DNA of 64,000 nucleotides from a virus (IMGVR_UViG_3300021399_003033:9619-73618); one strand, 5' to 3'. Counted from the stretch's first letter, positions 390-24,390 are shown. Notes: a model not told the origin generated them from the letters alone. Program-made: numbers and translations.

Positions 390-1270
390 AATTTGAAAAT
401 ACAAGAGTATATAATTTTGAAAATTCTTTTCGAGGAATGAGAAATCCAAAAAATAGCTGGGATTTAAGTGATAGTTATTTTAATATTACTGATAATGAAG
501 ATGGAGAAATTCTTAAAGTCGCTAATGCTTGGATTCAACAAGATCACCCTGATTGGAATGGACATAATGAAGAACATAAAAAATTTGTTGAATTACAAGA
601 TGAATATCTTAATTGGCTAATTACAAATGGTATTTTAAAAGAATCTAAAGACAAAGAATCTAAAGACCATGATTATAAAGAAGTTGCTTATATTGGACCT
701 AAAGATATGCATTTAGCTTAGCTTTTAATTCGTTCTGGTCCAGAACATCGCAAATTTCTTCGTCAAATTTTTGTTTCTGTGGATATAACTGCTCCACTCT
801 ATTGGTGGAAAGAAGCTGACACCTACAAGGTCGGAACAGTCGCGAACAGTACTTCTACAATGCATAAGCTTGCATCATATCCTATTACAGAAGAATGTTT
901 TGAAATGGGAGATTATAATGGTGATTTAAAACCATATGAAGGTAATCCTATATGCTTAGATACTACTGTTAAAACTATTTGGAATAATCTTATAATTGAT
1001 TGTGAAAATCTTCGCAGATGTTATAATGAAACGAAAGATATTCGCTATTGGAAAGAATTAGTACGACTTCTTCCAGAAAGTTGGCTACAAACTCGTACTA
1101 TAACAATGAATTATGAAAATCTTCTTGCAATATGTTCTAAAGGACAAAGAAGAAATCATAAATTAATTGAGTGGAGAGAAGATTTTATTAATTGGGCAAG
1201 GACTTTACCGTATGCAAACCAGTTAATTTTTATAGATGAACAAACTTCCCAAGATTTTACATTAAGTTGA
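386..1270 (+). CDS. thyX: ThyX-like (flavin-dependent thymidylate synthase fold) protein, 294 aa, TAG at 719-721
   Basis: Track ORFs 386..721 and 779..1270 are in one frame, joined by LA(TAG)LLIRSGPEHRKFLRQIFVSVDITAPLYWWKE. The H..FLRQI.V.V.I.AP.YWW.E and RT..MNYENL segments match the phage ThyX-like family. The canonical RHRxxSxxxxSxR motif is divergent. Confidence 0.7.
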
Positions 1271-1295
1271 TTTTTTAATAAAAAAATGATATAAT
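1267..1295 (+). promoter_or_regulatory. sigma70/sigmaA promoter TTGATT-N17-TATAAT with extended -10 TG
   Basis: TTGATT 1267-1272, TG 1287-1288, TATAAT 1290-1295, upstream of ATG 1333. Confidence 0.8.
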
Positions 1296-1332
1296 ATATT
1301 TATAAAGTTAAGAAATAAAAAAGGAAAAAATT

Positions 1333-1698
1333 ATGACTAAGAAAGAAAAATTTATTGAATTAGTAGAAACAGGATTTAAAGCGATTAATATTGATTTAAA
1401 TGATCCAGATCAAGCAGATGCAATGGCTTATTGGGAAGCTTTTAAGGGGAAAAAAGAAATTGAAAAGCCCGAATTTACCGATAATGGTAAGTTGATTCTG
1501 AAATATCTTCAGGATCATGCTACTGATATTCCAATGGCAAAAGCAAAGGACATTGGAGAAGGATTGTTTGTTTCTTCAAGAGTTGTATCTGGAGCAATTA
1601 GAAAACTTGTAACAGATGGTTATGTGGAGAAGATTGGACAGGATCCAGTAGTATATGCAATTACAGAAAAAGGTAAAGAAGTAAAATTTGAAAATTAA
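1333..1698 (+). CDS. winged helix-turn-helix DNA-binding protein (121 aa, TAG-free)
   Basis: C-terminal wHTH pattern AKDIGEGLFVSSRVVSGAIRKLVTDGYVEKIGQDPVVYAITEKG; AAGG RBS. Confidence 0.75.
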   Translation: MTKKEKFIELVETGFKAINIDLNDPDQADAMAYWEAFKGKKEIEKPEFTDNGKLILKYLQDHATDIPMAKAKDIGEGLFVSSRVVSGAIRKLVTDGYVEKIGQDPVVYAITEKGKEVKFEN

Positions 1699-1712
1699 GG
1701 AGAAAAAATAAT

Positions 1713-2672
1713 ATGAAAAAGACAATTAATAGAACACATGTATCTGGTCTTCTTTATGAACATGATTTACAGTTAAGAACAACAGGACCGAATTCAAAAA
1801 AGCCAGGAACTACTTTTATTATGGGTACAGTTAGTATTCTTACTGATCCAGAAGGAGCAGCAACAAATGTAGTTCCGGTTCATTTTACATATGTAACTGA
1901 AACAACTGCAAGCGGCGCAGCTAATAATACTTTTAAGATTCTTAATGATATTATTGGTGGCAAGTATATGAGTGTAACTGAAAATGGTGTTGATAAGGCA
2001 TCTAAGTTTAGAATTGATTCCGCAATTGGTCTGAATGAATTTTTCTCAAATCGTAATGGACAGGAAGAGCTTGTTAGTGCGAAAAGAAATGAAGGTGGAT
2101 TTATTCACGCAAGTAATGATCTTGAAGAAGATGTTAATACAAGAAACACTTTTGAAGTAGATATGCTTATTACAAGTGTAATTCGCCAGGAGGAGAATCT
2201 TGAGCGTAATATTCCTGAAAGAGTTGTAATTAAGGGAGCTATTTTTGATTTTAGAAATGCTCTTCTTCCGACAGAATTTATTGCAACAAATCCAAATGCA
2301 ATGGATTATTTTGAGAATCTTGGAGCATCAACTAAGGAACCAGTATTTACTCGAATTAGAGGTCGTCAGATTTCTTCAACAACTGTTAGAAAGATTGAAG
2401 AGGAATCTGCTTTTGGTGAGACTTATGTAAGAGAAGTCCAGAATACCAGAAGAGAGTGGGTAGTAACTTGGGCACAGGGTGAGCCTTATCTTTTTGATGA
2501 TGAGAGTACAATTACTGTAAAGGAACTTACTGATGCAATGGCTCAGAGAGAGATTACTGTAGCTGGCATTAAGCAGAGACAGGATGAGTATAATGCATCC
2601 AGAGCTAATGCTGCTGCAAAGCCTGCGGCCGCAGCTAATACGATGGCAAAAGTTGGAGATTTTAATTTCTAA
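1713..2672 (+). CDS. ssb: putative phage single-stranded DNA-binding protein (319 aa, TAG-free)
   Basis: Two OB-fold-like beta-rich halves and a flexible Ala-rich tail ending DFNF; next to a recombinase-like ATPase in a replication cluster; AAGGAG RBS. Confidence 0.6.
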   Translation: MKKTINRTHVSGLLYEHDLQLRTTGPNSKKPGTTFIMGTVSILTDPEGAATNVVPVHFTYVTETTASGAANNTFKILNDIIGGKYMSVTENGVDKASKFRIDSAIGLNEFFSNRNGQEELVSAKRNEGGFIHASNDLEEDVNTRNTFEVDMLITSVIRQEENLERNIPERVVIKGAIFDFRNALLPTEFIATNPNAMDYFENLGASTKEPVFTRIRGRQISSTTVRKIEEESAFGETYVREVQNTRREWVVTWAQGEPYLFDDESTITVKELTDAMAQREITVAGIKQRQDEYNASRANAAAKPAAAANTMAKVGDFNF

Positions 2673-2693
2673 TTAAAAATATAATATATAAAT

Positions 2694-2721
2694 AGAGTAG
2701 ATAATTTATTATCTACTCTTT
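2694..2721 (+). terminator. putative intrinsic terminator hairpin after ssb
   Basis: AGAGTAGATAAT-TT-ATTATCTACTCT inverted repeat followed by TT. Confidence 0.55.
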
Positions 2722-2797
2722 ACCATAAATATTAAAAAATAAAAAAGACTCGTGAAAGTAAGGATAAGGGTCTGTAAAGAAAGTGAGAAAATAAGAT

Positions 2798-3796
2798 ATG
2801 GCTATTGATTTATTAGGTATTCAGCCACACAAAGTAAGTAGAGATTTAAGTGGATATATTACATATATTTATGGTGCGCCCAAGACTGGTAAAACAACTT
2901 TGGCGACATAGATGCCAAATGCATTGCTTCTTGCATTTGAGAGAGGATATAATGCATTACCTGGAGTAATGGCTTAGGATATTACCACTTGGGGTGAAAT
3001 GAAACAGGTTTATAGAGAACTTAAAAAGCCTGCAGTAAAAAATGTTTATAAGAGTATTATTGTTGATACTGTTGATGAAGCTTCTGAGATGTGTCAGAAA
3101 TATATTTGTCAGCAGAAAGGCATTGAATCTCTTGGAGATCTTGGATATGGAAAAGGATGGGGTGCTTTTAATACTGAATTTGCAGAGGTATTTAGAGGAC
3201 TAACCCAGATGGGATATGCTGTATTTTTTATCGGACATGATAAAGAAGTTAATATTACTAACAATGATGGTAATGTTGAAAGAGTTGTAATTAGACCTCG
3301 TCTTAGTGGTAAAGCAAGCGTTATTATTAGTGGTATGGCAGATATTTATGGATATGCTCATCAGAAGAATAAAGGAGAAATGTCTGTTCTTACTCTTCGT
3401 TGCGGAGATGATTCTATTGAATGCGGCGGTCGCTTTAAGTATATTAAGAGCGAGTTTCCAATGAGTTATGAAAATCTTGTTAATGCAGTATCTGAAGCCA
3501 TTGATAAAGAAGCAGCAGAGTATGGCAATGAATATGTAACAGATGAAAAAGAAACTATTACTCAGAAGCCAGTTTATGATTTTGATGAATTGATGTCTGA
3601 ATTCCAGGGGCTTGCTGGAGATATTATGACAGCAGATGCATCTAATTCAACTAAGATCACTGCAATTATTGAAAAATATCTTGGTAAGAAAAAGAAGATT
3701 GCTGAAGCAACCCCAGAACAGGTTGAAATGGTTTATCTCATTGTACAAGATTTAAGAGATCTAAGGGACAAAACGATGGATATTAATAATATTTAA
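2798..3796 (+). CDS. AAA/RecA-like ATPase (Sak4/AAA_24 type), 332 aa, TAGs at 2909 and 2975
   Basis: ATG 2798 is in frame with track ORF 2999. Walker A GAPKTGKT lies upstream of two TAGs and Walker B-like IIVDTVD downstream, so the full NTPase needs read-through. Confidence 0.85.
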
Positions 3797-3803
3797 TTAT
3801 ATA

Positions 3804-3843
3804 AAAAGCATTTTTTAAAGAGTTTTCTTTAAAAAATGCTTTT
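3804..3843 (+). terminator. inverted repeat, putative terminator
   Basis: AAAAGCATTTTTTAAAGA-GTTT-TCTTTAAAAAATGCTTTT directly after the ATPase stop. Confidence 0.55.
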
Positions 3844-3844
3844 A

Positions 3845-3933
3845 TTGATTTTATACAAAAATTTTGATATAATATTAATATAAATTATAAAAAATTAACA
3901 AAATTTGACAAAAAAATAATTTTATGATATAAT
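3845..3933 (+). promoter_or_regulatory. tandem sigmaA promoters, 60 bp apart
   Basis: TTGATT 3845-3850/TATAAT 3868-3873 and TTGACA 3905-3910/TATAAT 3928-3933; both have 17-nt spacers and an extended TG. Confidence 0.85.
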
Positions 3934-3970
3934 AATAATGAAATATTAACCAAAAAGAGGTTAAATCATT

Positions 3971-4495
3971 ATGGCTCATAGAGTAAAATGTTATTATTGT
4001 CAACAATTTTTTGATAGAGATAAAGAACCTACTGTTCAAGTTATGAGTAGAAGATATGCTCATAAATTATGTGCAGAAAAGGCTAAAACTCATGTTGAAG
4101 AAGTGTTAGATGATAAAGGACAATTAGAACAATATATTATGAAATTGTTTGGGGATGATTATGTTACGCCCCGAATAAGAAAACAAATAAATGAATATGT
4201 AGATACTTATAATTTTACATATTCGGGAATATTAAAAGCATTAAAATATTTTTATGAAATAAAAGGTAATAATACAGAAAAATCTAATAATGGAATAGGT
4301 ATTGTTCCATATATTTATAAAGATGCTTTTAATTATTATTATCAAATATGGTTAGCTCAACAAAAAAATCAAGATTTTAAAATTGAAGAGTATCATCCAG
4401 AAGAGATAGTAATAAAAATTCCGCGGCCAGAAAGACCAATAAAAAAACGTCAATTATTTACTTTTTTGGATGAGGGGGATGATACGATAGAATGA
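3971..4495 (+). CDS. Zn-finger protein (CxxC...HxxC), possible helicase loader/replication protein (174 aa, TAG-free)
   Basis: VKCYYCQQFF...RYAHKLCAE; overlaps the DnaB start (ATGA). The loader role is inferred from position only. Confidence 0.6.
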   Translation: MAHRVKCYYCQQFFDRDKEPTVQVMSRRYAHKLCAEKAKTHVEEVLDDKGQLEQYIMKLFGDDYVTPRIRKQINEYVDTYNFTYSGILKALKYFYEIKGNNTEKSNNGIGIVPYIYKDAFNYYYQIWLAQQKNQDFKIEEYHPEEIVIKIPRPERPIKKRQLFTFLDEGDDTIE

Positions 4496-6036
4496 GTTCA
4501 AAATATGTGGACAATACAGCTATCATACAAGTAATTGGCGCAATCTATAATAATCCGAAACTACTTGATTTAACAGATAAATATATTATTACAGACCAAG
4601 ATTTTGACAATCAATTTCATAGAATAGTATTTGGAGCAATTTATAAAATTCACGAATTAGGTGCAGAGAAAATAACAATTGAAAATATTTCAGATTTTTT
4701 ATCAGATCGCCCAAAGTATGAAGCTATTTATAAAAGTAATAAAGGAAATGAGTGGATTTTAAAAATTGCTGAAAATTGTACTCCATTATCTTTTGATTAT
4801 TATTATGGAAGATTAAAGAAAATGTCTTTACTTCGAGCATATGATAATTATGGAGTTAATGTTTCTGATATTTATGATCCTGATAATATTTTGGATGTAA
4901 AAAAGAAACAAAAGCAAGAAGAGTGGTTAGATAACGCAAATCTTGATGATATTGCAAATTTAGTAGATGCAAAAATAGATAATATTAGAATGCAATATGT
5001 TGATGATTCTTTTGGAGAATCTATTCCGGCAGGCACTAATATTAAAGGGTTAATTGATAAATTTAAAGAACATCCAGAAGTTGGAGTTCCTATGTATGGG
5101 CCTCTAATTAATACTGTTACTCGTGGAGCAAGATTGAAAAAGTTTTATTTGCGGTCAGCGCCTACTGGTGTAGGTAAGACTCGTTCAATGATTGCAGATG
5201 CTTGTTATATTGGATGTAATAAAATTTATGATGAAACTTTTGGATGGATTAAAAATGGTGTTGCAGAACCAGTTTTATATATTACAACAGAACAAGAACT
5301 TGAAGAAATTCAAACAATGATGCTTGCTTTTTTATCTGCTGTAAATGAGGAACATATTATTAATGGAAAATATGAAGGTGATGAAGAAGAAAGAGTTTTA
5401 AAAGCTGCTGAAATTCTTGAACAAAGTCCTATTTATATTGAGGAATTACCAGATTTTTCATTAAAAGATGTTGAAGATAGAATTAAGAAAAATGTCAGAG
5501 AAAAAAATGTAAAATACATATGTCATGATTATATTCATACAAGTTTAAAAATTCTTGAAGAAATTACAAGACGTTCTGGCGGAGTTAAACTTCGTGAAGA
5601 TAATATTTTGTTTATGTTGTCAACAAAATTAAAAGACATATGTAATCAATATGGAGTATTTATTCTTTCTAGTACTCAGCTGAATGGAGACTGGAAGGAC
5701 GCAAAAATTCCAGATCAAAATTTACTTCGTGGTGCTAAGGCTATTGCAGATAAAATTGATTTAGGCGGAATTTTATTACCTGTAACAACTGATGATATAA
5801 AAGCATTAGAACCAATTTTAAATTCTAATATTTTTGCAAAGCCAACAATTAAATTGTCTATTTATAAAAATAGACGAGGTAGATATAAAGGTGTAATTTT
5901 ATGGTGTAAAGCAGATTTAGGTTGTTGTAGAATTCAGCCTATGTTTGCAACAACATATGATTATGAAATGATAGAAATTAATAATACTAAAATAATGGTT
6001 GAAGAAGGAGCATTTTATAATGGAGAATAGAAATAA
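4492..6036 (+). CDS. dnaB: DnaB-like replicative helicase, 514 aa (only TAG is the penultimate codon)
   Basis: Walker A RSAPTGVGKTR, YITTEQ, DYIH, LSSTQLN, LRGAKAIADKID and KNRRG motifs; ends GAA TAG AAA TAA. Confidence 0.9.
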
Positions 6037-6331
6037 TTTTATTAAAAATAGTGTAAAAAAGAACCTTGAAAAGAAGAATCAGAAGAGAAAGAAATCTTTT
6101 GTAAAAAGTCTTGATTTTGTAAAAGTAGAAAATGCAAAGTATTGGTATCCAGATGATCCTTATCTTGGAAAAAGATTTATTGAATATAAAATGCCAAAAG
6201 AAATTATTTTAGATCTTTTAAATAATAGAAATGATCTTGATAAAAATGTTGATTTTCAGAAATTTTTATGTGATTATGTAAATAATGAATATGGTCTTAA
6301 TGGATATTGTATTAGAGTAATAGAGGGATAA
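6020..6331 (+). CDS. hypothetical protein (103 aa)
   Basis: AAGGAG RBS at 6005-6010, ATG 6020, TAA 6329-6331. Confidence 0.7.
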   Translation: MENRNNFIKNSVKKNLEKKNQKRKKSFVKSLDFVKVENAKYWYPDDPYLGKRFIEYKMPKEIILDLLNNRNDLDKNVDFQKFLCDYVNNEYGLNGYCIRVIEG

Positions 6332-6332
6332 A

Positions 6333-7436
6333 ATGATTGATTATAATAAGGTAAAAATAAAAGAAGCGTTAAATCTTGAAGATATTTTTACCTTATTGAC
6401 AGAATTTGGTGGAGAGCCAGAATATACAAATTTTGGTATTATCTCCACCACAATTTGTCATAATCCTCCAGGAGTAGGAAGTAGAAAATTATATTATTAT
6501 ATAAATAGTACAATGTTTACTTGTTATACTGGATGTAATGGTAGTTTTGATATTTTTGAATTAGTTTGTAAAGTTGCGAAAATTCAATGGCAAGAAGAGT
6601 ATGATTTAAATGCGGCGGTCCGTTGGGTTGCTCGCAGATTCGGAATCTCAGGTGATTCTATAGATGGTACTGATGAAGATGCATTGCCTGATTGGAAAAT
6701 TTTTGCAAATTATGATAAATTAAAAGAAATAAATAAAAACTACAATTTACAAGAACTTCCAGAATATAATAGTAATATATTGTCTATTTTTAATTATAAG
6801 GTAAAAATTGAACCTTGGTTAAAAGAGGGTATTACTCAAGAGGTTATTGAAAAAGCTCAAATTGGATATTATCCTGGAAAAGATTAGATTACGATTCCAC
6901 ATTTTGATCAGGCTGGAAGATTCATTGGACTGCGTGGCCGCACACTTATAAAAGAAGATGCTGAAATTTATGGTAAATATAGACCTATAACAATTAATCA
7001 TAAATTATATAATCATCCTCTTGGATTAAATTTATATAGTTTAAATTGGAGTAAAGAAAATATAAAAGCTATTAAAAAAGTAATTATATTTGAAAGTGAA
7101 AAATCTTGTCTTAAATATGCTTCATATTTTGGATGGGAAAATAATTTAAGTGTAGCTGTTTGTGGTTCTAATTTATCAGTACATCAAATGCAACTTTTAT
7201 TAAATGATAACGTAGAAGAAATTATAATTGCATTTGATAAACAATTTCAAGAATTAAATACAGATGAAAGTAAACTATGGGAAAAAAAATTAACAAATAT
7301 TTATGATAAATATCATAATGATGTTTTAATTACTTTTATGTGGGATAAATGGAATCTATTAGGATACAAAGATTCTCCGATTGACTGTGGGATGGATAAT
7401 TTTTTATATTTATTTAAAAATCGAATAATTATATAA
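6333..7436 (+). CDS. dnaG: DNA primase (Zn-binding + TOPRIM), 367 aa, TAG at 6885-6887
   Basis: Zn-binding CHN...CYTGC, then YPGKD(TAG)ITIPHFD...GLRGR, FESEKS, CGS and IAFDKQ TOPRIM motifs. Track ORFs 6333 and 7188 are in the same frame. Confidence 0.9.
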
Positions 7437-7471
7437 GGAGGCGATTATGATGAAAGGAGGTTGAATTCAAT

Positions 7472-9241
7472 ATGGAATATCAACTTAGAAAATCATTGCT
7501 CCCGCTTGAGTTTAATAGAAATTATAGTGCGGTAGAGCAGATTTTTATGAATAGGGGCATGTCCCCAGAAGAAACTTAGCATTATTTATCAGTATCATAG
7601 CAAGATTTATTAGATCCAGAATTACTTGATCATATGAAAGATGGAGCTAGGATGTTAATAAAACACATTCAAGCTAATGATAAGATTTTTGTTTTAATAG
7701 ATGTTGATTGTGATGGTATGACAAGTAGTGCTGCTTTAATTAATTATCTTAATATGTTATTTCCAGCATATACCTAGTCTCATATAATTTATTATATGAA
7801 TGAGGGAAAAATTCATGGAATTAATGCAGATACTGTTCCAGAAGATGTGAAAATGGTTATTTGTCCTGATTCCAGTAGCAATAGTTATGAAGATCATAAA
7901 AAATTGCGCGAGCGGGGATGTGATGTTCTTGTTCTGGATCATCACCTCGCTGAACGAGAATCCGCAGACGCAATAATTATTAATAATCAAATGTGCGACT
8001 ATCCAAATAAAACACTTTCTGGTGTTGGGATCGTATATAAATTTTGTTCATATTTAGATTCTTTATTAGGAACTGAATATGCTAAGGAAATTTTAGATCT
8101 TACTGCTGTTGGAATTATTGCTGATATGATGGATTTAAGAAATTTTGAAACTCATTATATCATTACTCAAGGACTTTAGCATTTCCGCAATCCATTTTTA
8201 AAAGAGCTTGCAGAACATAATGATTATAGTATTAGTAAAGCTGGGGGATTGCAACCATTCTCGGTAAGCTGGTATATTGCTCCTCAGATTAATGCTATTG
8301 TAAGATCTGGAACTACAGAAGAGCGTATGATTGTTTTTAAATCAATGCTTGAATTTAATTCATATGATTAGGTACTTTCAACAAAGAGAGGATGTAAAGG
8401 ATAGTATGAAGCATTAGTTACCTAGGCAGTCAGAACCTGTGTCAACGTCAAAAATCGTTAGACTAAGATTAGAGATTCTGTTTATACGACGATTGATAAA
8501 ATTATTAAAGACAAAAATTTATTAAATAATAAAATTATTGCGGTTAAATTAGATAAAAATCATGAAATTGATAGAAATCTTGCTGGATTAGTTGCAAATG
8601 AATTTGTTGCAGAATATAATCATCCTGTATTGATTCTTATGGAAAACGATACAGATGAAGGTATTAACTGGGAGGGTTCAGGACGCGGAACTAATACTAC
8701 TGATTTTGATGATTTTAAAGGATTCCTTGATAATAGCGGTTTTATAAACTGGGCAGAGGGACACTCAAATGCAATGGGTGTTTCTATCTCAGATATTAAC
8801 TTTGATAAATTTATTGAATATTCAAATAAAGAACTTGATAAATGTGATTTTAAAAAAGTTTATTTAGTAGATTTAATTTGGGATTTCTTTAAATTTAAAT
8901 CTCAAGATGTTATATCTATTGCTGATTTAAATAAAATATGGGGACAAGGAATTGAAAAACCTCTAATTGCAATAGAAAATATTTAGGTAACAGAAAATAG
9001 TTTAACATTAATGTCTCCAAATAAAACCCCTACTTTAAAAATTAAATTGCCAAATGGAGTAGAATTAATTAAATTTGGTTCTTCGCAAGAAGAATTTGAA
9101 TCATTACTACCTAATCCAGGAGGAAGTACAACTATTAATATTATTGGTACTTGTGATTTAAACGTTTGGAATGGTAATGTAACTGGACAAATTAAAATTA
9201 CAGATTATGAAATTATTGGTAGTAAAAAATATTACTTTTGA
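7472..9241 (+). CDS. recJ: RecJ-like DHH/DHHA1 ssDNA exonuclease, 589 aa, 9 in-frame TAGs
   Basis: AAGGAGG RBS; DVDCDG, PD, LDHH, GIIADMM, APQINA, GSGR and EGHSNAMG motifs in one frame. Four track fragments are joined by TAG read-through. Confidence 0.9.
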
Positions 9242-9243
9242 TT

Positions 9244-9274
9244 AAAAAGGAGGTAAAACTATGCCTCCTTTTTT
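9244..9274 (+). terminator. hairpin after recJ (AAAAAGGAGG/CCTCCTTTTT) with T-tract
   Basis: 10-bp stem 9244-9253/9264-9273 followed by T. The stem also contains an SD and an ATG (see findings). Confidence 0.6.
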
Positions 9275-9351
9275 AGTTCGCACGCCGGTGATGGGTCATG
9301 AGGACCGCCTTCCAAATCAAAAATACTTTTAGAAATTTTTGAAGCAAATAG

Positions 9352-9380
9352 TTGATTTTTTATAAAAAATATAATATAAT
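9352..9380 (+). promoter_or_regulatory. sigmaA promoter TTGATT-N17-TATAAT
   Basis: TTGATT 9352-9357, TATAAT 9375-9380, upstream of ATG 9416. Confidence 0.75.
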
Positions 9381-9415
9381 ATAAATAGAGATATAAATTA
9401 TAAGGAAGAATAAAT

Positions 9416-10600
9416 ATGATTCTTACTACTAAACAAGAACAAGGATTAAAAATAGCTGTTGAAAGACATAAAAATGGGGAAAAATATACGGTAATTTCTG
9501 GTTATGCAGGAACGGGAAAATCAACATTAGTTAGATTTATTATTTCTGCTTTAGATGTTGATGAAGGACGAGTATGTTATACTGCTTTTACTGGAAAAGC
9601 AGCTGAAGTTCTTCGTAAAAAAGGTAATAAAAATGTTAGTACATTACATCGGCTTCTTTATGAATCAATTCCAAGAGAAGCAGGTGGCTTTTTTCGTAGA
9701 ATTAAACCATCTATCCCATATGATATTGTTATTGTTGATGAATGTTCAATGGCTCCAAAAGAATTAATAGATATATTATTAAAACATAAAGTATATATTA
9801 TTTTTCTTGGTGATCCATTTCAGTTACCTCCAATAGATAAAGAGAATGATAATCATTTATTAGATAATCCTCATGTTTTTCTTGATGAAATTATGCGGCA
9901 GGCTCAAGAATCTGAAATTATTAGATTAACTATGAAAATTCGTAATCAAGAGCCACTTTCTTTTGAAAGCAATGATACTGTAAAAATTCTTCATCATAAA
10001 GAATTAACTCAAGGAATGTATAGTTGGGCAGATCAAATTTTAACTGGAACTAATGCTACTAGAGCCAAAATAAATACAGAAATGCGAGCTATGCTAGGAA
10101 AAGGAGCTGAACCAGAAGCAGGAGATAAAGTTATTTGTACTCGTAATTATTGGGAAGATTGTAGTATTTGCGGCGACCCATTAATTAATGGAAGTATTGG
10201 GTATCTTGTAAAACCTAGTAAGTCTAAAATATATTTGCCTTGGTTTTTAAGAAAAGAAAAAGAATATTTTGATGTTATAAAAACAGAAATAGAAATGCCT
10301 GATACTGGAGATATTTATCCTTTATTAAATATTGATTATAATATGCTACAAAAAGAAATTAAATCGGCAGATTGGCGATTAGAATATAAATTAGGAAAAA
10401 TGAAAAAACAATATGGGGATTTACTTCCGAAAGATTTTCTATATGCATATGCAATTACAGTACATAAAGCTCAAGGTAGTGAATGGGATAAAGTTTTAGT
10501 ATATGAAGAAAATTTTCCTTTTAATCGCACAGAACATGCGCGCTGGCTTTATACTGCCGCAACTCGAGCCGCAGATAAATTAGTTATTTTAAGGGAGTAA
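9416..10600 (+). CDS. recD: RecD/Dda-like SF1B helicase (394 aa, TAG-free)
   Basis: GYAGTGKS, TAFTGKAA, VDECSM, GDPFQLPP, YAITVHKAQGSEW and YTAATRA motifs. Confidence 0.85.
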   Translation: MILTTKQEQGLKIAVERHKNGEKYTVISGYAGTGKSTLVRFIISALDVDEGRVCYTAFTGKAAEVLRKKGNKNVSTLHRLLYESIPREAGGFFRRIKPSIPYDIVIVDECSMAPKELIDILLKHKVYIIFLGDPFQLPPIDKENDNHLLDNPHVFLDEIMRQAQESEIIRLTMKIRNQEPLSFESNDTVKILHHKELTQGMYSWADQILTGTNATRAKINTEMRAMLGKGAEPEAGDKVICTRNYWEDCSICGDPLINGSIGYLVKPSKSKIYLPWFLRKEKEYFDVIKTEIEMPDTGDIYPLLNIDYNMLQKEIKSADWRLEYKLGKMKKQYGDLLPKDFLYAYAITVHKAQGSEWDKVLVYEENFPFNRTEHARWLYTAATRAADKLVILRE

Positions 10601-10601
10601 T

Positions 10602-11186
10602 ATGAATATTGTTACTATTGATTTTGATATAATTATGGAACCAAGTATTAATTTATATAATGATAAAATAAATGATCAAAGAACTGTTCTAGATTTATAT
10701 AATGAATTTAATTGGTTACCAAATAGCATACCAGCAAATTTATATTTATATGAATATTTAACAAATTATATATTATGTTGTAAAAAAGCAAATGTTCCTA
10801 TTCATTTTATAGATAGCCATGAAGAAATTATTCAATATATAAAAAATTATAAATTAATAAATTTAATTAATATAGATCATCATCATGATTTAGGATATAT
10901 AGATGAAGATATTCATAATAAAATTAAAAATCTTGATTGTGGAAATTGGGCTAAATATGGATTAGAATAGAATATAATAAAAAATTATATTTGGGTTAAA
11001 GATAAAAATTCTATAAAAAATAAAGAAGATATTAAATATAAATTTGAAAGTTATGAAATAAAAAATTATAATTTGGTAAATTTACATAAAGAAACTGATG
11101 AATTAATTATATGTTCTTCTTTTGAATGGATTCCAGCAATGTATCATCCATTATTTTCTGTATGGCAAGATATTGGTGAAGGTTAA
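10602..11186 (+). CDS. UPF0489-like/arginase-fold hypothetical protein, 194 aa, TAG at 10968
   Basis: TIDFDII, DSHEEI, NIDHHHDLGY and CGNW motifs. The frame continues past TAG (GLE-Q-NIIKNYIWV...SFEWIP) to TAA 11184-11186. Confidence 0.6.
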
Positions 11187-11233
11187 ATGATACCTTCACC
11201 TTATTTGATTTTTATATAAAAATATGATATAAT
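11175..11233 (+). promoter_or_regulatory. hairpin followed by sigmaA promoter for dnaE
   Basis: 9-bp stem GGTGAAGGT/ACCTTCACC 11175-11200; TTGATT 11205-11210, TG, TATAAT 11228-11233. Confidence 0.8.
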
Positions 11234-11263
11234 ATTTATATAAAGAAAAAATATGAGGTAAAT

Positions 11264-14200: not shown

Positions 14201-15154
14201 TTTGATGATATGATGGAAAGAAAAATGGCAATGGCTTGGTTTATTTGGGAAACATGTGATAAAAAGAAGCGTATTACTCTTCAAAATATGGGAGGATTAA
14301 TTAAATATGGTTTACTTCCAGAAAAAAATGAAGAAGAAGTAATGGCAAGAAGAATCTATGAATTTAATAGATATTTAAAAGCTATTTGTAAAAATGGTGA
14401 AGGATATATATTAGATAATAGAGCATTAAATTTTATTCATGAAATTGAAGCAGATAGTTTGTTAGAGAATAAAAATAATGAATGGTATATTTCAGCAAAA
14501 AATTGGGATAAAAAAGTTTATCAAAAATGGATGGATGTATTTAGAGCATGGATTGCTGAAAATAAAGATGAAATATTAAATACATTAAATTCAAAGATTT
14601 TTTATGATGATTGGAGTAAATATGCTAAAGGAACAATCTCTGCTTGGGAGATGGAAGCTTTATGCTTTTATTACCACGAACATGAACTCGCTCATGTGGA
14701 TAGTTCAAGATATGGCTTTGTTAATTTTATGGATCTTCCAGAAACCCCAGTAATTGATAAAGTATATAAGAAAAATGGTAAAGAAATAAAAATATTTAAA
14801 CTTAATTTAATTTGCGGAACTTGTATTGCAAAGAATAAAGTCAAGAGTACTGTAAGTCTTTTAACTACAACTGGAGTAGTTACAGTTAAGTTCAGAAAAG
14901 AATATTTTAATCTCTTTGACAAACAGATTTCTGAAAAAAATCCAGATGGAACTAAGACAGTAAAAGAAAAATCTTGGTTTAATCGTGGAAGTATGATTAT
15001 CGTTCAGGGTATTCGTTCAGATGATAATTTCGTAACAAAAAAGTACGCAAACTCTGAAATGCATCAACTTTATAAGATAGATGAAATTCTTCCAGATGGC
15101 AGTTTAAAAATTAGGAATGAAAGATACCAGGGAGAAGCAGAAGATGATGAATGA
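11264..15154 (+). CDS. dnaE: DNA polymerase III alpha subunit (DnaE), 1296 aa, TAG-free
   Basis: PHP motifs (HAHT.YS..D, AITDHE, GTDAHYL), GAGRGSS, GDIDID, HASGV, KYDFL and GYSFSVIHALAY; OB fold at the C-terminus. Confidence 0.95.
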   Translation: MRKYFNNHAHTIYSNVRLLDAINRPKDLIKKAHELGMSGIAITDHEILSAHVEALKVAEEIYKEDPDFLVALGNEIYLTDTRDNGQKYYHFILIAKDAIGHKALRELSSHSWFCSYMDRGLERVPTLKSELDEIVHKYPGHLIATTACIGGELGTNLLMRAKALAIDDNYNADLYFIQAKVFLNYCKNLFGDDFYIECAPSSNEDQIAVNKQLKELSELFNIKMCIGTDAHYLTKEDRPVHKAYLNSKGGEREVDSFYEFTYLMNSDEVEELLSYSFDKDFISEILDNSLEIQNKITKYSLFHKQDIPRVEVEDYPKKAMGEASEKYPILNSMLSSDDKYERYWINGCINKLKDINKFNQEYLSRLEEEADVKRVIGEKLETNMFCYPVTLQHYIDLIWDCGSMVGAGRGSSCAALNHYLLGVTQLDPIEWDLPFFRYLNRERIELGDIDIDICPSKRPLILNKIKEERKAYFNEDVAEWAKENLGCTLVATFGTEGTKSAILTACRGYRSEDYPDGIDVDEAQFMSSMIPQERGFLWSIHDVVYGNPEKGRNPVQSFIREVNNYPGLLDIIVSIEGLINHRGSHASGVILFDGDPFEHCAFMKTPKGEITTQFDLHDDEYLGLTKYDFLVTEVQDKLVQAIQLLQKDGQIEADLSLREVYDKYFHPNVLPLKDKRIWDALGNVSVLNTFQFDSAVGSQVAKMLKPQNVLEMADANGLMRLSGEDGEERPMNKYYRFKNNINLWYKEMDDFGLTKEEQKAIEPYFKSSYGVPPSQEQLMRMLMDENICGFSLGEANAARKVVGKKQMNKIPELREKVLKSAKSEKLGQYIWKYGAGPQMGYSFSVIHALAYSFIGVQTLYIATNWNPIYWNTACLIVNSGATDPDNGGQTDYSKIAKAMGDIINAGINLSLVNINQSGYGFEPDAKNNRILYGMKAMLNVGDDVIDATIKNRPYISIKDYYNKVHPNKQAMISLIKGGAFDDMMERKMAMAWFIWETCDKKKRITLQNMGGLIKYGLLPEKNEEEVMARRIYEFNRYLKAICKNGEGYILDNRALNFIHEIEADSLLENKNNEWYISAKNWDKKVYQKWMDVFRAWIAENKDEILNTLNSKIFYDDWSKYAKGTISAWEMEALCFYYHEHELAHVDSSRYGFVNFMDLPETPVIDKVYKKNGKEIKIFKLNLICGTCIAKNKVKSTVSLLTTTGVVTVKFRKEYFNLFDKQISEKNPDGTKTVKEKSWFNRGSMIIVQGIRSDDNFVTKKYANSEMHQLYKIDEILPDGSLKIRNERYQGEAEDDE

Positions 15155-15497
15155 TAAACAAATATGTTCAGTTTGCGGGAGGGAACTTCCGCAAACTGAT
15201 TTTTGGAAAATAAAAGAACCATTTATAGATTGGCATAAAATAAAATATCATAGATATAATATTTGTAAAGAATGTTGTTATGAAACTAAATTATTAGATG
15301 AATCTAACAATGATAATATAAAATTATATTGTGAATTTTTTAATATTCCTTTTATATTAAAAGAATGGGAAATATTAAAAAAAAGATATTATCCTAAAAG
15401 ACATATTTTTGGAAGATATATGGCTAAAATGAACTTAGCAGGATATCGACCATATTAGTATAAAGATTCGGAGGAATTGAATAAATTCTATGAATAA
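15144..15497 (+). CDS. Zn-finger protein (CxxC...CxxC), 117 aa, TAG at 15456
   Basis: CSVCGREL...ICKECC and GRYMAKMNL. Read-through ends at TAA 15495-15497, overlapping the gmk start. Confidence 0.65.
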
Positions 15498-16077
15498 TTA
15501 TAAAATTCTTGCAATTATTGGAGAGGCCGGAACTGGTAAAGATACTATCATGAAAGAGGTTCTTAAAAAGAACCCCAATATTCATGAAATTATTTCTTGT
15601 ACTACACGTCCTCCAAGAGAAAAGGAAAAAAATGGTATTAATTATCATTTTTTAACGCATGAAGAATTTACAAATAAAATTTTAAATAATGAAATGCTTG
15701 AAGCAACAGTTTTTAATGATTGGTGTTATGGAACAAGTTATGATTCATTAGATACAAATAAAGTTAATATTGGAGTTTTTAATCCAGCAGGAATAGAAGC
15801 TTTAATGGAACATAAAAATATTTTTATTGTGTGTTATTATGTGCGGGCCGCAGACAAACAGCGTCTTTTACGCCAACTTAATCGTGAGGAAAATCCTGAT
15901 GTAAAAGAGATAATTAGACGCTTTTCCGCAGATAATTTAGATTTTTCAGAGCTTCAATTTCATTATAATGAAATTGAGAATAACACACTACAAGATCTAG
16001 ATAAAAATATTGAGATTATAAATAGCGCTTGTTTACGTCTTTAGAATCTATTGGACCAAGAAAGACAAAGTATTTAA
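15490..16077 (+). CDS. gmk: guanylate kinase, 195 aa, TAG at 16042
   Basis: GEAGTGKDT P-loop, ISCTTRPPREKEKNGINYHF and YGTS motifs. Confidence 0.9.
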
Positions 16078-16148
16078 TTTAAAATTTATATATAATAGAT
16101 TTCTACATTAGAAATCCTTAAAATAATAATAATTAGGAGGAAATCTAT

Positions 16149-18386
16149 ATGATTTATGTAAAGAAGAGAGATGGACGTAGAGTTCCATTCGATGAGAAAA
16201 AAATTGAAAATGCTGTATTAGCAGCTTTTAAAGATGTGGATAAAGAAATTACTCCATATGCATAGGATAAAGCATATAATATAGCAATGTATGTTCTTGG
16301 ATATGCAGAAGAATAGTTAACAGAATTAGGAATTGAAGATATTCAAGATTTAGTCGAAAAAGGACTTATGGCGACAAAACGAAAAGATGTCGCTAAAGCG
16401 TATATTCTTTACAGAGATAAACGTAATAAAGAACGTGAAGGCAATATAGATTGGATGAAACTTATCTCTGAAAAACTTCAAGCAAAAAATGTTCAAAATC
16501 AAAATGCTAATGTTGATGAGCATTCTTTTGGAGGAAGAAAAGGGGAAGCTGATAATGTTTTAATGAGAGAAATTGCATTAAATCATATTGGCATGTCTAA
16601 AAAAAGTAGAGATAATCATTTAAATAATCGTATCTATATTCATGATTTAGATGCATATGCAGTTGGTATGCATAACTGTTTGACAATTCCTTTTGATGAT
16701 TTGTTAGCTAATGGATTTAATACTCGTCAAACAGATATTCGTCCTGCAAACAGTGTAAATACAGCTTTTTAGCTTGTGGCAGTATTATTCCAGCTTCAAA
16801 GTTTACAACAGTTTGGAGGCGTTTCCGCAAGCCATTTAGATTGGACAATGGTTCCTTATGTAAGAAAAAGTTTTTATAAACATTTTAAAGATGGAATAAA
16901 ATATATAGATAAAAATGGTGAATCTAATAGCACTCGTTTTAATTCAGATTTACCAATTGATGCATATCAATATACATAGCATCAAGGAGAAGCCTATAAA
17001 TATGCTATGGATATGACTATTAAAGAAGTTAATCAAGCAGTAGAAGGTATGTATCATAACTTAAATACGTTACAATCAAGGTCTGGAAATTAGCTTCCAT
17101 TTACTTCAATTAATTATGGAACATGCACTTTGCCAGAAGGAAGAATAGTGATAAAAGCTTTACTTGATGGTTCTATTAAAGGAGTTGGAAAACTTCATAA
17201 AACACCTATTTTCCCTTGTGGTATTTTTCAATGTATGAAAGGAGTCAACCGTGATCCAGGGGATCCCAATTACGATTTATTTAGGTTAGCCCTTAAATCC
17301 ACAGCTAAAAGATTATATCCTAATTATGCTAATGTTGACTGGAGTGGCAATGCTGGATATGATCGCAACGATCCGAAGACATATTTCAGCACCATGGGAT
17401 GCAGAACAGCCAACGGATGGGATATCAATGGTTTCGGTCAACTGAAAGATGGACGCGGTAATATCTGTCCAGTAACTATTATTCTTCCTACTCTTGCAAT
17501 GGAAGCTAAAGAAAAAGTAGACAATGGACATCATTCATACTCTTCATATGCTTATCAAGCGGAATTTTTAAAATTGCTTGATGAAGCTATTCATGATGCG
17601 AAAGATACTCTAATTGAAAGATTTAATTGGATTTGTTCTCAAGATCCAGCTTCCGCAAAATTTATGTGGGAAAATAATACTATGGCAGGGTATATTCCAG
17701 AAGAAGGTCCTTATAGTGCTTTGCGCCATGGTACTCTTGCATTAGGTCAATTAGGTCTCGCAGAAGCGCTTCAAATTCTTATTGGTACAGACCATACTAC
17801 AGAAGAAGGTATGGAATTTGCTAAGAGAATTGAGCAGTTGTTTAAAGACAGATGTGCTGAATTTAAACAGGAATATAAACTTAATTTCGGTGTGTACTAT
17901 ACTCCAGCCGAAAACCTTTGCTATACCGCTTTAAAGAAATTTAGAGAAAAATATGGTGTAATACATAATATTAGCGATAAAGAATTCTTTACTAATTCAA
18001 TGCATGTTCCAGTTTGGAAACAAATCAGTCCTTTTGATAAAATTGATATTGAATCTCAATTAACAGGATATTCAAGCGCGGGCTGCATTACATATGTTGA
18101 ACTTGAATCTACTGTTGGTAAAAATATAGATGCAATGGAAACATTAGTAAATTATGCTATGGATAAAGATATTCCATATTTTGCAATTAATGTTCCTTGC
18201 GATACTTGTCTTGAATGCGGATATACTGGTGAATTTAATAATACTTGTCCTGTTTGCGGCAGTGACCATATTCAGCAATTAAGACGTGTTACTGGTTATT
18301 TAACTGGCAATTATACAACTGCTTTTAATTATGGCAAGCAAGATGAAGTACATAATCGTGTAAAACATACAGGTTATATGGAATAA
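16149..18386 (+). CDS. nrdD: anaerobic ribonucleoside-triphosphate reductase with ATP cone, 745 aa, 5 TAGs
   Basis: AGGAGG RBS; ATP cone VKKRDGRRVPFD; YIHDLD, HNC, TAF(TAG)LVAV, SRSGN(TAG)LPFTSINYG, MGCRT, TPAENL, CLECG...CPVCG and RRVTGYL glycyl-radical loop. Confidence 0.95.
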
Positions 18387-18398
18387 GGAGGCGACCAC

Positions 18399-18878
18399 AT
18401 GAGATATGCAGGAATTATACCAAATGATTTCGCCGCAGCTCCTGGAGTATGTACTACATTTTTTGTTTAGGGTTGTCCAATAAAATGCCCTGGTTGTCAT
18501 AACTCTGAAACTTGGGATTTTGAAGGCGGAAAAGAATTTAATGCAGAGGTTTTAAATAAATTAGAAGAAGATTTACTTGCTAATGGAATTAATAGAACTC
18601 TTTGTATTATGGGAGGAGAACCTCTCTGTCAAGAAAATTTATTCTTAACAACTATGATTGTTACAGAAATGAAACATAGATTACCAGATTTAAAAATTTG
18701 GATTTGGACTGGATATGAATATAAAGATATATTAGAAGAAGAATCTAATCCAAAAATTAAATATATTTTAGAAACTGTTAATGGATTGGTTACTGGTCCT
18801 TTTATTCAATCTTTAAGAGATATTACTCTTCCAATGAGAGGTAGTAGTAATCAAGAGATTATTAATTTAAAAAATTGA
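18399..18878 (+). CDS. nrdG: anaerobic RNR activase (radical SAM), 159 aa, TAG at 18468
   Basis: FV(TAG)GCPIKCPGCHNSETWDFEGG CxxxCxxC cluster motif, GGEPL, IWTGY; AAGGAGG RBS. Confidence 0.95.
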
Positions 18879-18903
18879 CTTTTATTCTTTTATTTGATAT
18901 AAT
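18875..18903 (+). promoter_or_regulatory. sigmaA promoter TTGACT-N17-TATAAT with extended TG
   Basis: TTGACT 18875-18880, TG 18895-18896, TATAAT 18898-18903. Confidence 0.8.
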
Positions 18904-18937
18904 AAAATTATAAATAAAAAGAAATGTGAGGTATGTA

Positions 18938-19519
18938 ATGAAAAATAAATTTCTAATTTTACTAATGGCTTTATTCCTATTAATTTTTAATTTTAATGCT
19001 TTTGCAAATGAGGGTGATATAAAAACTATAACAAAATATTCAAACAAAGATGGTAATCCTATTTATATCGCTCCAAGTGAAAGTTCTGAAATTATAGGAA
19101 CAGCTTTTGAAAATACTTCTTTTGAAGTTGTTTATGGCGGAGAAAGTGATGGCTGGAGTCAAATTGTAGCAGAAAATGGAAATGTCTTTATGAAGACAGA
19201 AGATTTATCTGATCAAAAAATTGAACATGGGCATTGGGTGTCTCTAGGAAAATATAAAACAACAGGATATTGTAATTGTAGAAAATGCTGCGGAAAGTGG
19301 TCTGGAGGCCCAACGGCAAGTGGGAGATATCCTATATCAAATCATACAGTAGCCTGTGGTTCTCTTCCTTTGGGAACCAAAATTATGATGAATGGTCAGC
19401 AATATATTGTTGAAGATAGAGGAGTTACTGGAAGACATATAGACGTTTATTATGACTCTCATAAAGTAGCTTATGCTCATGGAGTAAAATATATAGAAGT
19501 ATTTAGATGGGTGGAATAA
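18938..19519 (+). CDS. secreted SH3b + 3D-domain cell-wall protein (MltA-like lytic transglycosylase family), TAG-free
   Basis: Signal peptide MKNKFLILLMALFLLIFNFNAFA; SH3b-like middle (DGWSQI); 3D domain TTGYCNC...TASG...TVAC..LPLGTKI...VEDRG...HIDVY. Confidence 0.85.
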   Translation: MKNKFLILLMALFLLIFNFNAFANEGDIKTITKYSNKDGNPIYIAPSESSEIIGTAFENTSFEVVYGGESDGWSQIVAENGNVFMKTEDLSDQKIEHGHWVSLGKYKTTGYCNCRKCCGKWSGGPTASGRYPISNHTVACGSLPLGTKIMMNGQQYIVEDRGVTGRHIDVYYDSHKVAYAHGVKYIEVFRWVE

Positions 19520-19526
19520 AAAATAT

Positions 19527-20084
19527 ATGCAGCCAATTGAAGTTGATAATATAAATATTTTAAAATCTTTACCAAATCATCAAAAAGGTGAAATAGCTAT
19601 CGTCAAAGATGAACAGCAAAATTATGTTTATGTAGATGAAGAAAAGGGCTGGGTTCCTTTAAAAGCTAATATTGAATCTAATGGTTTAAAAATGAATTTA
19701 TATGAATTAAATAAATCTATTGTAAGTCAATTACCAGTTTTTGATGATAACGCTTGGAATGGAACAGAAAAAGTTATTAATGATTGGTTTCAAGATCAAT
19801 TAAATCAAACTAAAAAACCAAAATATTTTATGTTATATGGCAAAGATATTAGTTATTTTACTGTATTTAGAAGAGTAACTGCTGGTTTTGATTATGAAAA
19901 TTTCTTTAGTGCGTTAAAAGATATTTTAATTAATATTGGCGATGTATATGCTATTGATCCAGTAGAAGATAAAAGTGCTATTGAAATTTGGATTCGATAT
20001 ATTGATGAAGATCAAAAAATTGATGAAATGACTTGCCTATATTTATTTAATTATGATGAAGGGGTTATAACTTTTCATGAATAA
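19527..20084 (+). CDS. hypothetical phage protein (185 aa)
   Basis: Uninterrupted ORF packed between its neighbours; C-terminal IEIWI...YLFNYDEGVI. Confidence 0.75.
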   Translation: MQPIEVDNINILKSLPNHQKGEIAIVKDEQQNYVYVDEEKGWVPLKANIESNGLKMNLYELNKSIVSQLPVFDDNAWNGTEKVINDWFQDQLNQTKKPKYFMLYGKDISYFTVFRRVTAGFDYENFFSALKDILINIGDVYAIDPVEDKSAIEIWIRYIDEDQKIDEMTCLYLFNYDEGVITFHE

Positions 20085-20313
20085 TGAAATTATTTGTTTT
20101 GTGGATATGTTTTCCCTAACTCAAAATCTTAAAATTGGAGATAAAATTATCACAATTCCAACAGATGAGTTAGGAAAAACAATTCCTTCTTTATGTTATA
20201 GTAATTAGACTAATAAAGTACATTTATATGGTAATGAAATGTATATTGAAGGAATTGTAGTTGAAATAAATGAAAATGCTGATTATGCAAATATTGAGAT
20301 AAAGGTGAATTAA
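20077..20313 (+). CDS. hypothetical protein (78 aa, 1 TAG)
   Basis: MNNEIICFVDMFSLTQNL...YSN(TAG)TNKVHLYG...; fills the 20084-20319 gap exactly. Confidence 0.7.
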
Positions 20314-20318
20314 AAATT

Positions 20319-20543
20319 ATGAGAATTTTACTTAATAATACTGAAACTTATAGAGTTGATACAGAAGAAGAAGCTAAGGCTCTTATCGAAGAAATGAAAG
20401 AAAATGCATCTGATTATATTGTTGATTCTTATTCATCTGTAAGAAAAGAAAAAAAGAAAAAGGGTGAAATTATTGCCGAGGGGTATCAAGTAAAGATTAC
20501 AAAGAAATATTCTGATTTTTGGGTTATGGAGGAAGCTGAATAA
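20319..20543 (+). CDS. hypothetical protein (74 aa)
   Basis: ORF with AAGGTG RBS; its stop overlaps the dut start (TAATG). Confidence 0.75.
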   Translation: MRILLNNTETYRVDTEEEAKALIEEMKENASDYIVDSYSSVRKEKKKKGEIIAEGYQVKITKKYSDFWVMEEAE

Positions 20544-21127
20544 TGAGTGCTTATTTCCAAAAGGTAAGTAATTGCGGCGATGCCGTTCTGCCAGTTCGCA
20601 AGACCCAGGCTTCAGCAGGATATGATTTTTTCGCAGCTGAAGATATTATAATTCCCCCATATGAAGATCTTTGTAATGAAATGATTGGTGTTTTGCTTGA
20701 CGAAAGCGAAAGTATTTTTGATGCAGTATCAGATGCTAAAGAAGCTATGACACTCGATCAAATCGCCGCTTTAACGAAGCGCGCGCAAGCAAAACCTACT
20801 TTGATTCCTACTGGAGTTAAATGTCATCTTGATCCAGACACTTTTCTTCAACTTTCAATTCGATCTTCTTCTCCTTTAAAATACTGGATTATCCTTGCTA
20901 ATGGAGTTGGAATTATTGACGCAGATTATTACAATAATCCTGATAATGAAGGACATATATATTTTCAAGTAATTAATCTTTCTCCAATTCCCATTAAGAT
21001 CAAGAAAGGTGATGCAATTGGTTAGGGAATTATTATGAACTATAATAAAGTTTATGATGATCATGCTGATCAATTAAGAGAAGGCGGTTTTGGTTCTACA
21101 GACTCCGCACCTGCATCTACAACATAA
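20543..21127 (+). CDS. dut: trimeric dUTPase, 194 aa, TAG at 21023
   Basis: SAGYDF, RSS, GIIDADYY, KGDAIG(TAG)GI (motif 4 Gln) and REGGFGST motif 5 downstream of the TAG. Confidence 0.92.
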
Positions 21128-21624
21128 TGCGTAAATTGCTAGCCTTAGATTAGTCATCTAAAACTAGTGGATATGCAGTATTTTATGATAAAGAATTAAA
21201 ATACTATGGTCATTTTACTTTTGAGGATGATGATTTAGGAGATCGGCTTTATAAAATTCGTAAAAAAGTAAATGAACTCATAGAAAAATATGAAATTAAT
21301 GAAGTTGTTTTTGAAGATATTTAGTTACAAAATAATGTTGGCAATAATGTAAAAACATTTAAAGTTTTAGCAGAAGTATTTGGTGTTATTTATGAGTTAA
21401 TAACAGAATTAAAATTACCTCATTAGGAAATTTTAGCTTCCACTTGGAAATCTGGTCTTGGGATAAAAGGACGAACTCGTCCAGATCAAAAAAGAAATGC
21501 TCAAAAATATGTGCTTAATACTTATAATATGAAAGCAACTCAAGATGAATGTGATGCTATTTGCATTGGAACTCATATTCTTTTAGGAAAAAAACAAATA
21601 GCAGATCATGACTGGTCAGATTAA
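21127..21624 (+). CDS. ruvC: RuvC-like Holliday junction resolvase, 165 aa, TAGs at 21151, 21322, 21424
   Basis: Absent from the ORF track. LLALD(TAG)SSKTSGYAV, VVFEDI, STWKS and DECDAICIG give the D/E/D/D catalytic set. Confidence 0.8.
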
Positions 21625-24377: not shown

Positions 24378-24390
24378 CTTTTTTTCCTCC

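Follow-up and report, generated by a model that had tools for sequence, protein, structure and literature searches.

The stretch of viral DNA considered here (the window, 64,000 nucleotides) consists of bases 9619-73618 of the 73.6-kb IMG/VR virus contig IMGVR_UViG_3300021399_003033, which has a guanine-cytosine (GC) content of ~30% and a CheckV completeness of 44%, and the subject is the way in which in-frame TAG codons are distributed over the genes of its DNA replication module. The contig is organised in two opposed arms, with the replication genes on the plus strand (1-22 kb) and the virion genes on the minus strand. Under code 11 the coding density is no more than 0.55, and it rises to 0.92 with TAG as a sense codon; the commonest residue opposite an in-frame TAG in homologues is Gln (in the alignments of RecJ, DnaE and NrdD), with TAG also standing on invariant-Gln columns (RecJ columns 235, 401 and 413; DnaE 347, 745 and 939; NrdD 300 and 442). 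The recoding of TAG to Gln is therefore clear, which makes this a code-15 phage; it is probably virulent, and its host is probably of the Firmicutes type.

Table 1. Genes, promoters and terminator-like hairpins of the replication arm (positions counted from the first base of the window; fractions are TAG over Gln-type codons)
Feature	Position	Strand	Remarks
294-aa protein, PHROG 6721	386..1270	+	TAG at codon 112; 1/10
sigmaA-type promoter, extended -10	1267..1295	+	TTGATT-17-TGATATAAT
Winged-helix protein	1333..1698	+	HTH_27, E 1.2e-4; 0/3
SSB-like protein, two OB folds	1713..2672	+	predicted fold; 0/9
AAA_24 (Sak4-like) ATPase	2798..3796	+	Pfam; TAG at codons 38 and 60; 10 CAG kept
Terminator-like hairpin after AAA_24 gene	3804..3843	+	
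Tandem sigmaA-type promoters	3845-3873, 3905-3933	+	second has 12/12 consensus positions
174-aa Zn-finger protein	3971..4495	+	N-terminal CxxC, weak DnaD/DnaB_2-like match; 0/11
DnaB-type helicase	4492..6036	+	Pfam; sole TAG is codon 513/514
Primase	6333..7436	+	Pfam; TAG at codon 185, N-terminal to Toprim (250-302); 1/11
RecJ-like exonuclease	7472..9241	+	DHH, RecJ_OB; 9/21, first TAG is codon 36
sigmaA-type promoter	9352..9380	+	
RecD-like SF1 helicase	9416..10600	+	Pfam; 0/11
Terminator-like hairpin	11175-11200		ahead of the dnaE promoter
sigmaA-type promoter before dnaE	11205..11233	+	
DnaE/YorL-type Pol III alpha, 1296 codons	11264..15154	+	0/37; 17 CAG kept
Guanylate kinase (Gmk)	15490..16077	+	Pfam; TAG at codon 185/195, C-terminal to matched domain
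NrdD anaerobic ribonucleotide reductase	16149..18386	+	5/31; first TAG is codon 39, in ATP-cone domain
NrdG activase	18399..18878	+	Pfam; TAG at codon 24, ahead of CPIKCPGC (residues 26-33)
sigmaA-type promoter	18875..18903	+	11/12 positions, with TG
SH3_3 + 3D domain protein	18926..19519	+	Pfam; 0/4, too few codons to inform
dUTPase (Dut)	20543..21127	+	TAG at codon 161, inside Pfam dUTPase domain (residues 83-186)
RuvC-like resolvase	21127..21624	+	3/8; first TAG is codon 9

The genes in Table 1 were assigned by Pfam profile match in the case of the winged-helix protein, AAA_24, DnaB, primase, RecJ, the RecD-like SF1 helicase, DnaE, Gmk, NrdD, NrdG, the SH3_3 and 3D protein, dUTPase and RuvC. 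An earlier examination of the same DNA by a model (the sequence-only reading) had proposed that TAG acts as a translational gate on DNA replication, and its gene coordinates and TAG positions all held on recheck, as did the locations that it gave for TAG relative to catalytic motifs (checked for primase, RecJ, NrdG, RuvC, AAA_24 and Dut). The first TAG of recJ, a gene that starts 36 nt past the primase gene, precedes the DHH domain (71-215); a TAG of the AAA_24 gene sits shortly after Walker A (residues 26-33); and codon 9 of ruvC (21151-21153) lies two codons past the first Asp, in LALD-TAG-SS. The dependency on suppression stands as well: without it RecJ, RuvC, NrdD, NrdG, primase and AAA_24 are truncated, whereas DnaE, DnaB, the RecD-like and SSB-like proteins, and also GyrB, GyrA and the NAD-ligase LigA (which are encoded without TAG upstream of the window in the same arm, next to an RNase H gene with one TAG) are complete. 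At the penultimate TAG of dnaB the standard code would stop and give a product two residues shorter, to which suppression adds two. The name SSB has no Pfam match behind it, but the predicted two-OB fold (predicted local distance difference test score, pLDDT, 77) does resemble the two-OB SSBs of Thermus and Deinococcus (Foldseek E 3.5e-5 to 4e-4).

In the replication arm, 41 of 305 Gln-type codons are TAG, compared to 159 of 423 in the virion arm, and the distribution of TAG over the replication arm is uneven (permutation p = 5e-5). Only three genes are outliers individually, namely DnaE (p = 0.002-0.005), RecJ (9e-4) and a GIY-YIG homing endonuclease encoded just upstream of the window (G000:C1:8540-9544; TAG in 9/18 Gln-type codons, p = 2e-4), while SSB, RecD and the Zn-finger protein are each compatible with the arm-wide rate (p = 0.2-0.27). 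Measured against a uniform rate, the TAG-free status of DnaE is thus a real deviation, and that of SSB and RecD, taken alone, fits chance. Per gene, the ratio TAG/(TAG+CAG) is bimodal, being near 0 or near 1 in this contig as well as in two long relatives (G1 and G3), and CAG is nearly gone from TAG-bearing genes, as though TAG had taken its place. The first TAG of a gene lies at a mean relative position of 0.43 (0.41 expected), with TAG positions forming a random subset of the Gln-type positions, which rules out placement biased to the 5' end. Virion genes of 1200-1640 codons contain 18-33 TAGs each, so that suppression must be efficient late in infection.

A neutral control for these ratios is the change from CTG to TTG (Leu), which is a first-position C-to-T change like that from CAG to TAG, so that TTG/(TTG+CTG) can be compared with TAG/(TAG+CAG). 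In this contig the Leu ratio is 0.74-0.89 in all gene classes. The TAG ratio reaches 0.94 for the virion genes and 0.79 for the endonuclease, RecJ, RuvC, NrdG and NrdD genes pooled, but only 0.03 for the core replisome set (1 TAG vs 39 CAG, p = 1.6e-11) and 0.00 for DnaE (p = 6e-6). The same comparison over 13 relatives gives 0.12 for DnaE vs 0.81 for its control (p = 9e-30), with depletion also of DnaB (p = 3.5e-9), RecD (p = 2.8e-6), AAA_24, SSB and Dut; primase (TAG share 0.68) and NrdD are only marginally below the control, and RecJ, RuvC, NrdG and Gmk are indistinguishable from it. Selection excludes TAG from the core replisome, and in RecJ, RuvC and NrdG TAG behaves as a neutral synonym that has reached the same equilibrium as in the virion genes. 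Since its share there equals the Leu control, nothing shows that TAG has been selected for as a gate, and the proposal that it is positively maintained or positioned as one fails on this point and on the missing 5' bias.

The split between the two sets of genes recurs in related recoded phages. Forty related loci were fetched, about half of them with TAG in the replication arm, and a within-locus permutation over 14 recoded lineages shows depletion of TAG in DnaE (14/509 vs 63 expected), RecD, DnaB and SSB, and enrichment in RecJ (83/271 vs 32 expected), RuvC (20/69 vs 8.6), primase, Gmk and NrdG, with NrdD, AAA_24, Dut and the Zn-finger protein being average. Loci tend to rank their genes alike by TAG share (mean rho 0.41, with a positive value in 48 of 57 pairs), and sequence conservation was ruled out as a predictor of that share (rho -0.19, p = 0.52). 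The TAGs of RecJ are spread over 46 alignment columns, and just 4 of these are shared between major clades, so that most gains were independent; in the DnaE tree, the pair L012/L025, whose 10-11 TAGs in RecJ are nearly the only ones that it has, is nested among relatives with TAG-free arms. AAA_24, Dut and NrdD, which had been listed among the gated genes, do not keep that place, because the former two are TAG-excluded families in the relatives and NrdD is intermediate. In the distant phage phAss-1, TAG is present in only two of the genes that match replication proteins of the window, namely RecJ (4/22) and a GIY-YIG endonuclease (8/24), and NrdD has 0/29. The TAG at codon 9 of ruvC is common to four lineages (the window clade, L005/L006/L028, L026 and L032), the codon being CAA or CAG in three other recoded lineages. 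Homing endonuclease or intron-type open reading frames (ORFs) adjoining or inside TAG-free replication genes (dnaB, dnaE and nrdD; L032, L033, L038 and L041) are rich in TAG: the inserts have 9/22 (L032 dnaB), 7/14 (L033 dnaB) and 5/16 (L038 dnaE), with flanking exons that have none.

Six sigmaA-type promoters lie in intergenic gaps of the plus strand (Table 1), five of them with the extended -10 TG, and a seventh is found upstream of the window before gyrB. The motif TTGAYW-N17-TAYAAT has 7 matches against 0.86 expected, a number reached by 0 of 100 shuffles, which confirms the promoter positions of the sequence-only reading. Its further claim, that promoter-proximal genes are free of TAG, is true of this contig, where the first genes after promoters have TAG in 0/67 Gln-type codons vs 41/238 elsewhere (p = 2.4e-5), but it is overturned by the relatives. 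Here consensus promoters stand directly before TAG-rich RecJ (L012 and L025), NrdD (L030) and other TAG-bearing genes, and once DnaE (whose promoter, ~60 nt upstream, is conserved) is excluded, promoter-proximal genes are in fact enriched in TAG (38/188 vs 22.6 expected). Promoter proximity is incidental to the partition, and the boundary between the classes is drawn not by operon position but by selection that keeps TAG from the core replisome. A candidate late promoter (GGRCA-N6-ATTAW...TATAGAG) occurs before virion operons only, at 25262, 39087, 50092 and 52840 (minus strand) of the window. None was found on the plus-strand replication arm, so that TAG-bearing and TAG-free genes there belong to common transcription units of the early type.

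As for the suppressor, two long relatives, G1 and G3 (one of 139.6 kb, the other of 144.4 kb and 100% complete), have one tRNA-CUA each in a tRNA array, 483 and 541 nt downstream of a promoter of the same sigmaA-type consensus class as in the window, and phAss-1 has two Sup-CTA tRNA genes adjoining nrdD, inside its replication arm. Among 34 relatives, no replication arm contained a tRNA. Similarity to the phage tRNA-Gln gave no clear Gln identity for the suppressor, and a search of the window and of the surroundings of the suppressor against Rfam, for ribozymes and further known RNAs, matched tRNAs only. A location behind an early-class promoter points to a suppressor that is made early and to a short lag, which does not agree with a late checkpoint at which priming, deoxynucleotide supply and junction resolution would wait. 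In G3 (the record behind L012), dozens of consensus sigmaA-type promoters are interspersed with small TAG-free ORFs at ~77-99 kb, as in an early host-takeover-type region, and the tRNA array (60.4-69.1 kb; 24 tRNAs including tRNA-CUA) comes after that region on the same strand.

Following these results, it seems that host-type sigmaA promoters would drive polycistronic units in which two classes of genes are mixed. The first class, from which TAG is kept by selection, consists of DnaE, DnaB, the RecD-like helicase, the two-OB SSB and the upstream GyrB, GyrA and LigA (family-wide also of AAA_24 and Dut), all of which could be made by unmodified host translation. In the second class (RecJ, RuvC, NrdG, Gmk, primase and homing endonucleases, with NrdD intermediate), CAG would have drifted to TAG up to the equilibrium of the virion genes, and full-length protein would be formed only once the amber-suppressor tRNA(CUA) of the phage works. 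The outcome would be a translational delayed-early tier within early transcription units, with a short lag, and we consider it probable (roughly 0.6) that this tier results from constraint on the replisome core and not from TAG having been placed as a designed gate. What remains of the sequence-only reading is thus the dependency on suppression and the recurring split, without the promoter rule, the early placement of TAG or selection for a gate. The tier is not limited to nucleases or replication functions, because the early arms of relatives also hold TAG-rich genes for an endolysin, PIN-PhoH, radical-SAM enzymes and a glycosyltransferase, for which reason a lock on nucleases only was rejected as too narrow. 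The endolysin-like gene of G3 (L073:15237-17510, minus strand; 757 aa with glucosaminidase, amidase, PG-binding and SH3 domains; TAG 13/47) has RNase H and gyrB as neighbours in the replication arm, and its TAG richness agrees with the published recoding of lysis genes. A lysogeny lock is disfavoured too, as tyrosine integrases and serine recombinases are absent from the five records searched, one of them 100% complete.

Several observations weigh against this interpretation. The exclusion of TAG is not absolute, with 9 TAGs in DnaE of L030 and 4 in that of L041, where DnaB has 7; relatives with internal TAGs in dnaE and dnaB, which the sequence-only reading had named as grounds for its own rejection, do therefore exist, within families that are strongly depleted overall. 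The primase is TAG-saturated in the L007, L022, L035 and L041 lineages and DnaE is not, which is not easily explained by a simple time-of-need argument. TAG is also excluded from certain late-arm genes, so timing is not the only cause: the virion-arm genes at 23607-24437 (minus strand; 0/17, 14 CAG; PHROG 16490) and 39900-42002 (minus strand; 0/16, 6 CAG; PHROG 25888) are free of it, and two genes after the portal gene in G3 (192 and 353 aa), which by their place in the gene order are probably scaffold and capsid, have 0/12 and 1/15. Orthologues of 23607-24437 in relatives are TAG-poor as well. Furthermore, no tRNA, and hence no suppressor tRNA, was found in the 73.6-kb contig (44% complete), genes were called by a simple ORF rule, and the lineages are not wholly independent of each other. 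Finally, we infer the timing of the suppressor from its position in relatives, and likewise the length of the lag.

Whether the partition is an adaptation in its own right can be judged from the same data. If TAG had been selected for in primase, NrdD/NrdG, RecJ and RuvC, such that polymerase, helicase and SSB come first and replication proper starts at the code switch, one would expect what the window indeed shows, i.e. that all five of these enzymes require suppression; the absence of TAG, over this contig, from the genes directly behind promoters would fit as well, and so would the TAG richness of primase in four further lineages (6-9 TAGs), although the TAG share of primase is near neutral. 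Such a checkpoint nevertheless seems unlikely, given that the TAG shares equal the neutral control and TAG positions lack a 5' bias, that the promoter rule reverses in relatives once DnaE is left out, that AAA_24 and Dut exclude TAG there and NrdD of phAss-1 has none, that a promoter of the same sigmaA-type class precedes the suppressor, and that DnaE and DnaB do carry TAGs in L030 and L041. It is somewhat less likely still that timing plays no part and that TAG is shunned wherever imperfect suppression would be costly (i.e. in highly expressed or dose-critical proteins, through truncated or reduced product) and tolerated in enzymes needed in low amounts. A separate expression-level effect does exist: the SSB-like gene has a codon bias toward G endings (Gln 9/9 CAG, and AAG for 75% of Lys codons) that suggests high expression, and the late-arm genes without TAG retain CAG. 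However, DnaE, DnaB and RecD, which are not abundant proteins, have background codon usage apart from CAG (AAG 3-21%), virion genes of 1200-1640 codons tolerate 18-33 TAGs, and TAG share does not follow conservation.

That the pattern is due to chance, or to TAG-free genes having been acquired recently from standard-code phages, is very improbable: chance would suffice for SSB, RecD and the Zn-finger protein of this contig, but neither for the unevenness within the arm nor for a family-level signal that recurs over 14 lineages and in phAss-1. A foreign origin of dnaE was rejected, because its GC content (0.30) and GC at third codon positions (0.14) are the same as in neighbouring genes, and the Leu control places it at the C-to-T equilibrium everywhere but in its Gln codons. 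A wider form of the favoured constraint-derived tier can be put forward only tentatively, namely that a family of large Firmicutes-type phages has a conserved, convergently evolved third tier of expression, in which immediate-early transcription from host-type promoters would be followed by an amber hold until suppressor tRNA accumulates, with TAG always entering RecJ, RuvC and homing endonucleases first and the polymerase last.

The window's DnaE finds its best cultured matches, at 38-40% identity along 99% of its length, in phages of Enterococcus and in Bacillus phages like SPbeta, and it is 37% identical to DnaE of phAss-1. The replication modules of these phages (SPbeta, with YorL, and Enterococcus phages) are alike in having the closest cultured polymerase homologues, Firmicutes hosts and sigmaA-type promoters; they use the standard code, and we know of no in-frame TAG in them. 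In crAss-like code-15 phages, TAG-to-Gln recoding has reportedly been validated by metaproteomics (by Peters et al.), but these belong to an unrelated phage order with Bacteroidota hosts, another promoter type and other replication machinery. Closer in principle are the gut phages of Borges et al. (bioRxiv 10.1101/2021.08.26.457843), in which early genes use the standard code and can be translated in that of the host, late and structural genes are heavily recoded with TAG as an amino acid, suppressor tRNAs are phage-encoded, recoding preferentially affects a homing endonuclease located within an early gene, and that of replication genes is called 'variable'. The present phage agrees with this in its recoded virion arm and its nearly TAG-free core replisome. 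What differs is the gene-by-gene partition of the replication module, absent from that work and found here inside sigmaA-driven operons, with independent gains of TAG and selection against it; a literature search found no paper on such a partition or on a Leu-control test. The gut phage phAss-1 (OQ749652.1, 'Caudoviricetes code 15 clade') shares the DnaE-type polymerase, NrdD/NrdG, GyrA/GyrB, RecJ, AAA_24, tRNA arrays with tRNA-Sup-CTA and TAG read as Gln, and its authors noted that 'several DNA-processing enzymes' contain TAG and that its occurrence in NrdG and dUTPase varies (PMC10607447). The present results are best regarded as a refinement of the published code-switch model, and neither as a new mechanism nor as evidence of a dedicated replication checkpoint.

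Comparison of TAG/(TAG+CAG) with TTG/(TTG+CTG) allows phage genes to be sorted, from sequence only, into those that must be translatable in the host code and those able to await the code switch. Should the lag be real, stop-codon recoding would not only lock lysis genes but also time expression post-transcriptionally within early operons, and if the third-tier reading is true, one could read from the order of TAG invasion at what time each replication protein is required. For annotation, the consequence is that code 11 fragments RecJ, RuvC, NrdD/NrdG and primase in such phages, as with RecJ of phAss-1, which appears as three ORFs in GenBank.

Of the remaining genes, the ORF at 386-1270 had been labelled ThyX-like, an identity that found no support: there was no match in Pfam (Thy1), PDB sequences or a PDB profile, and its model (pLDDT 44.6) is too poor for a fold search. 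The 3' end of dnaE is overlapped by a 126-aa zinc-ribbon ORF (15117-15497), inside which a strong terminator-like hairpin (15168-15199), located after dnaE, encodes CxxC. Upstream of the window, a 90-aa gene (G000:C1:8205-8477, i.e. window -1413 to -1141) is of atypical composition, with a GC content of 0.43, only AAG for Lys and only CAG for Gln, and has 89% identity to its G1 orthologue; it probably encodes a very highly expressed small protein.

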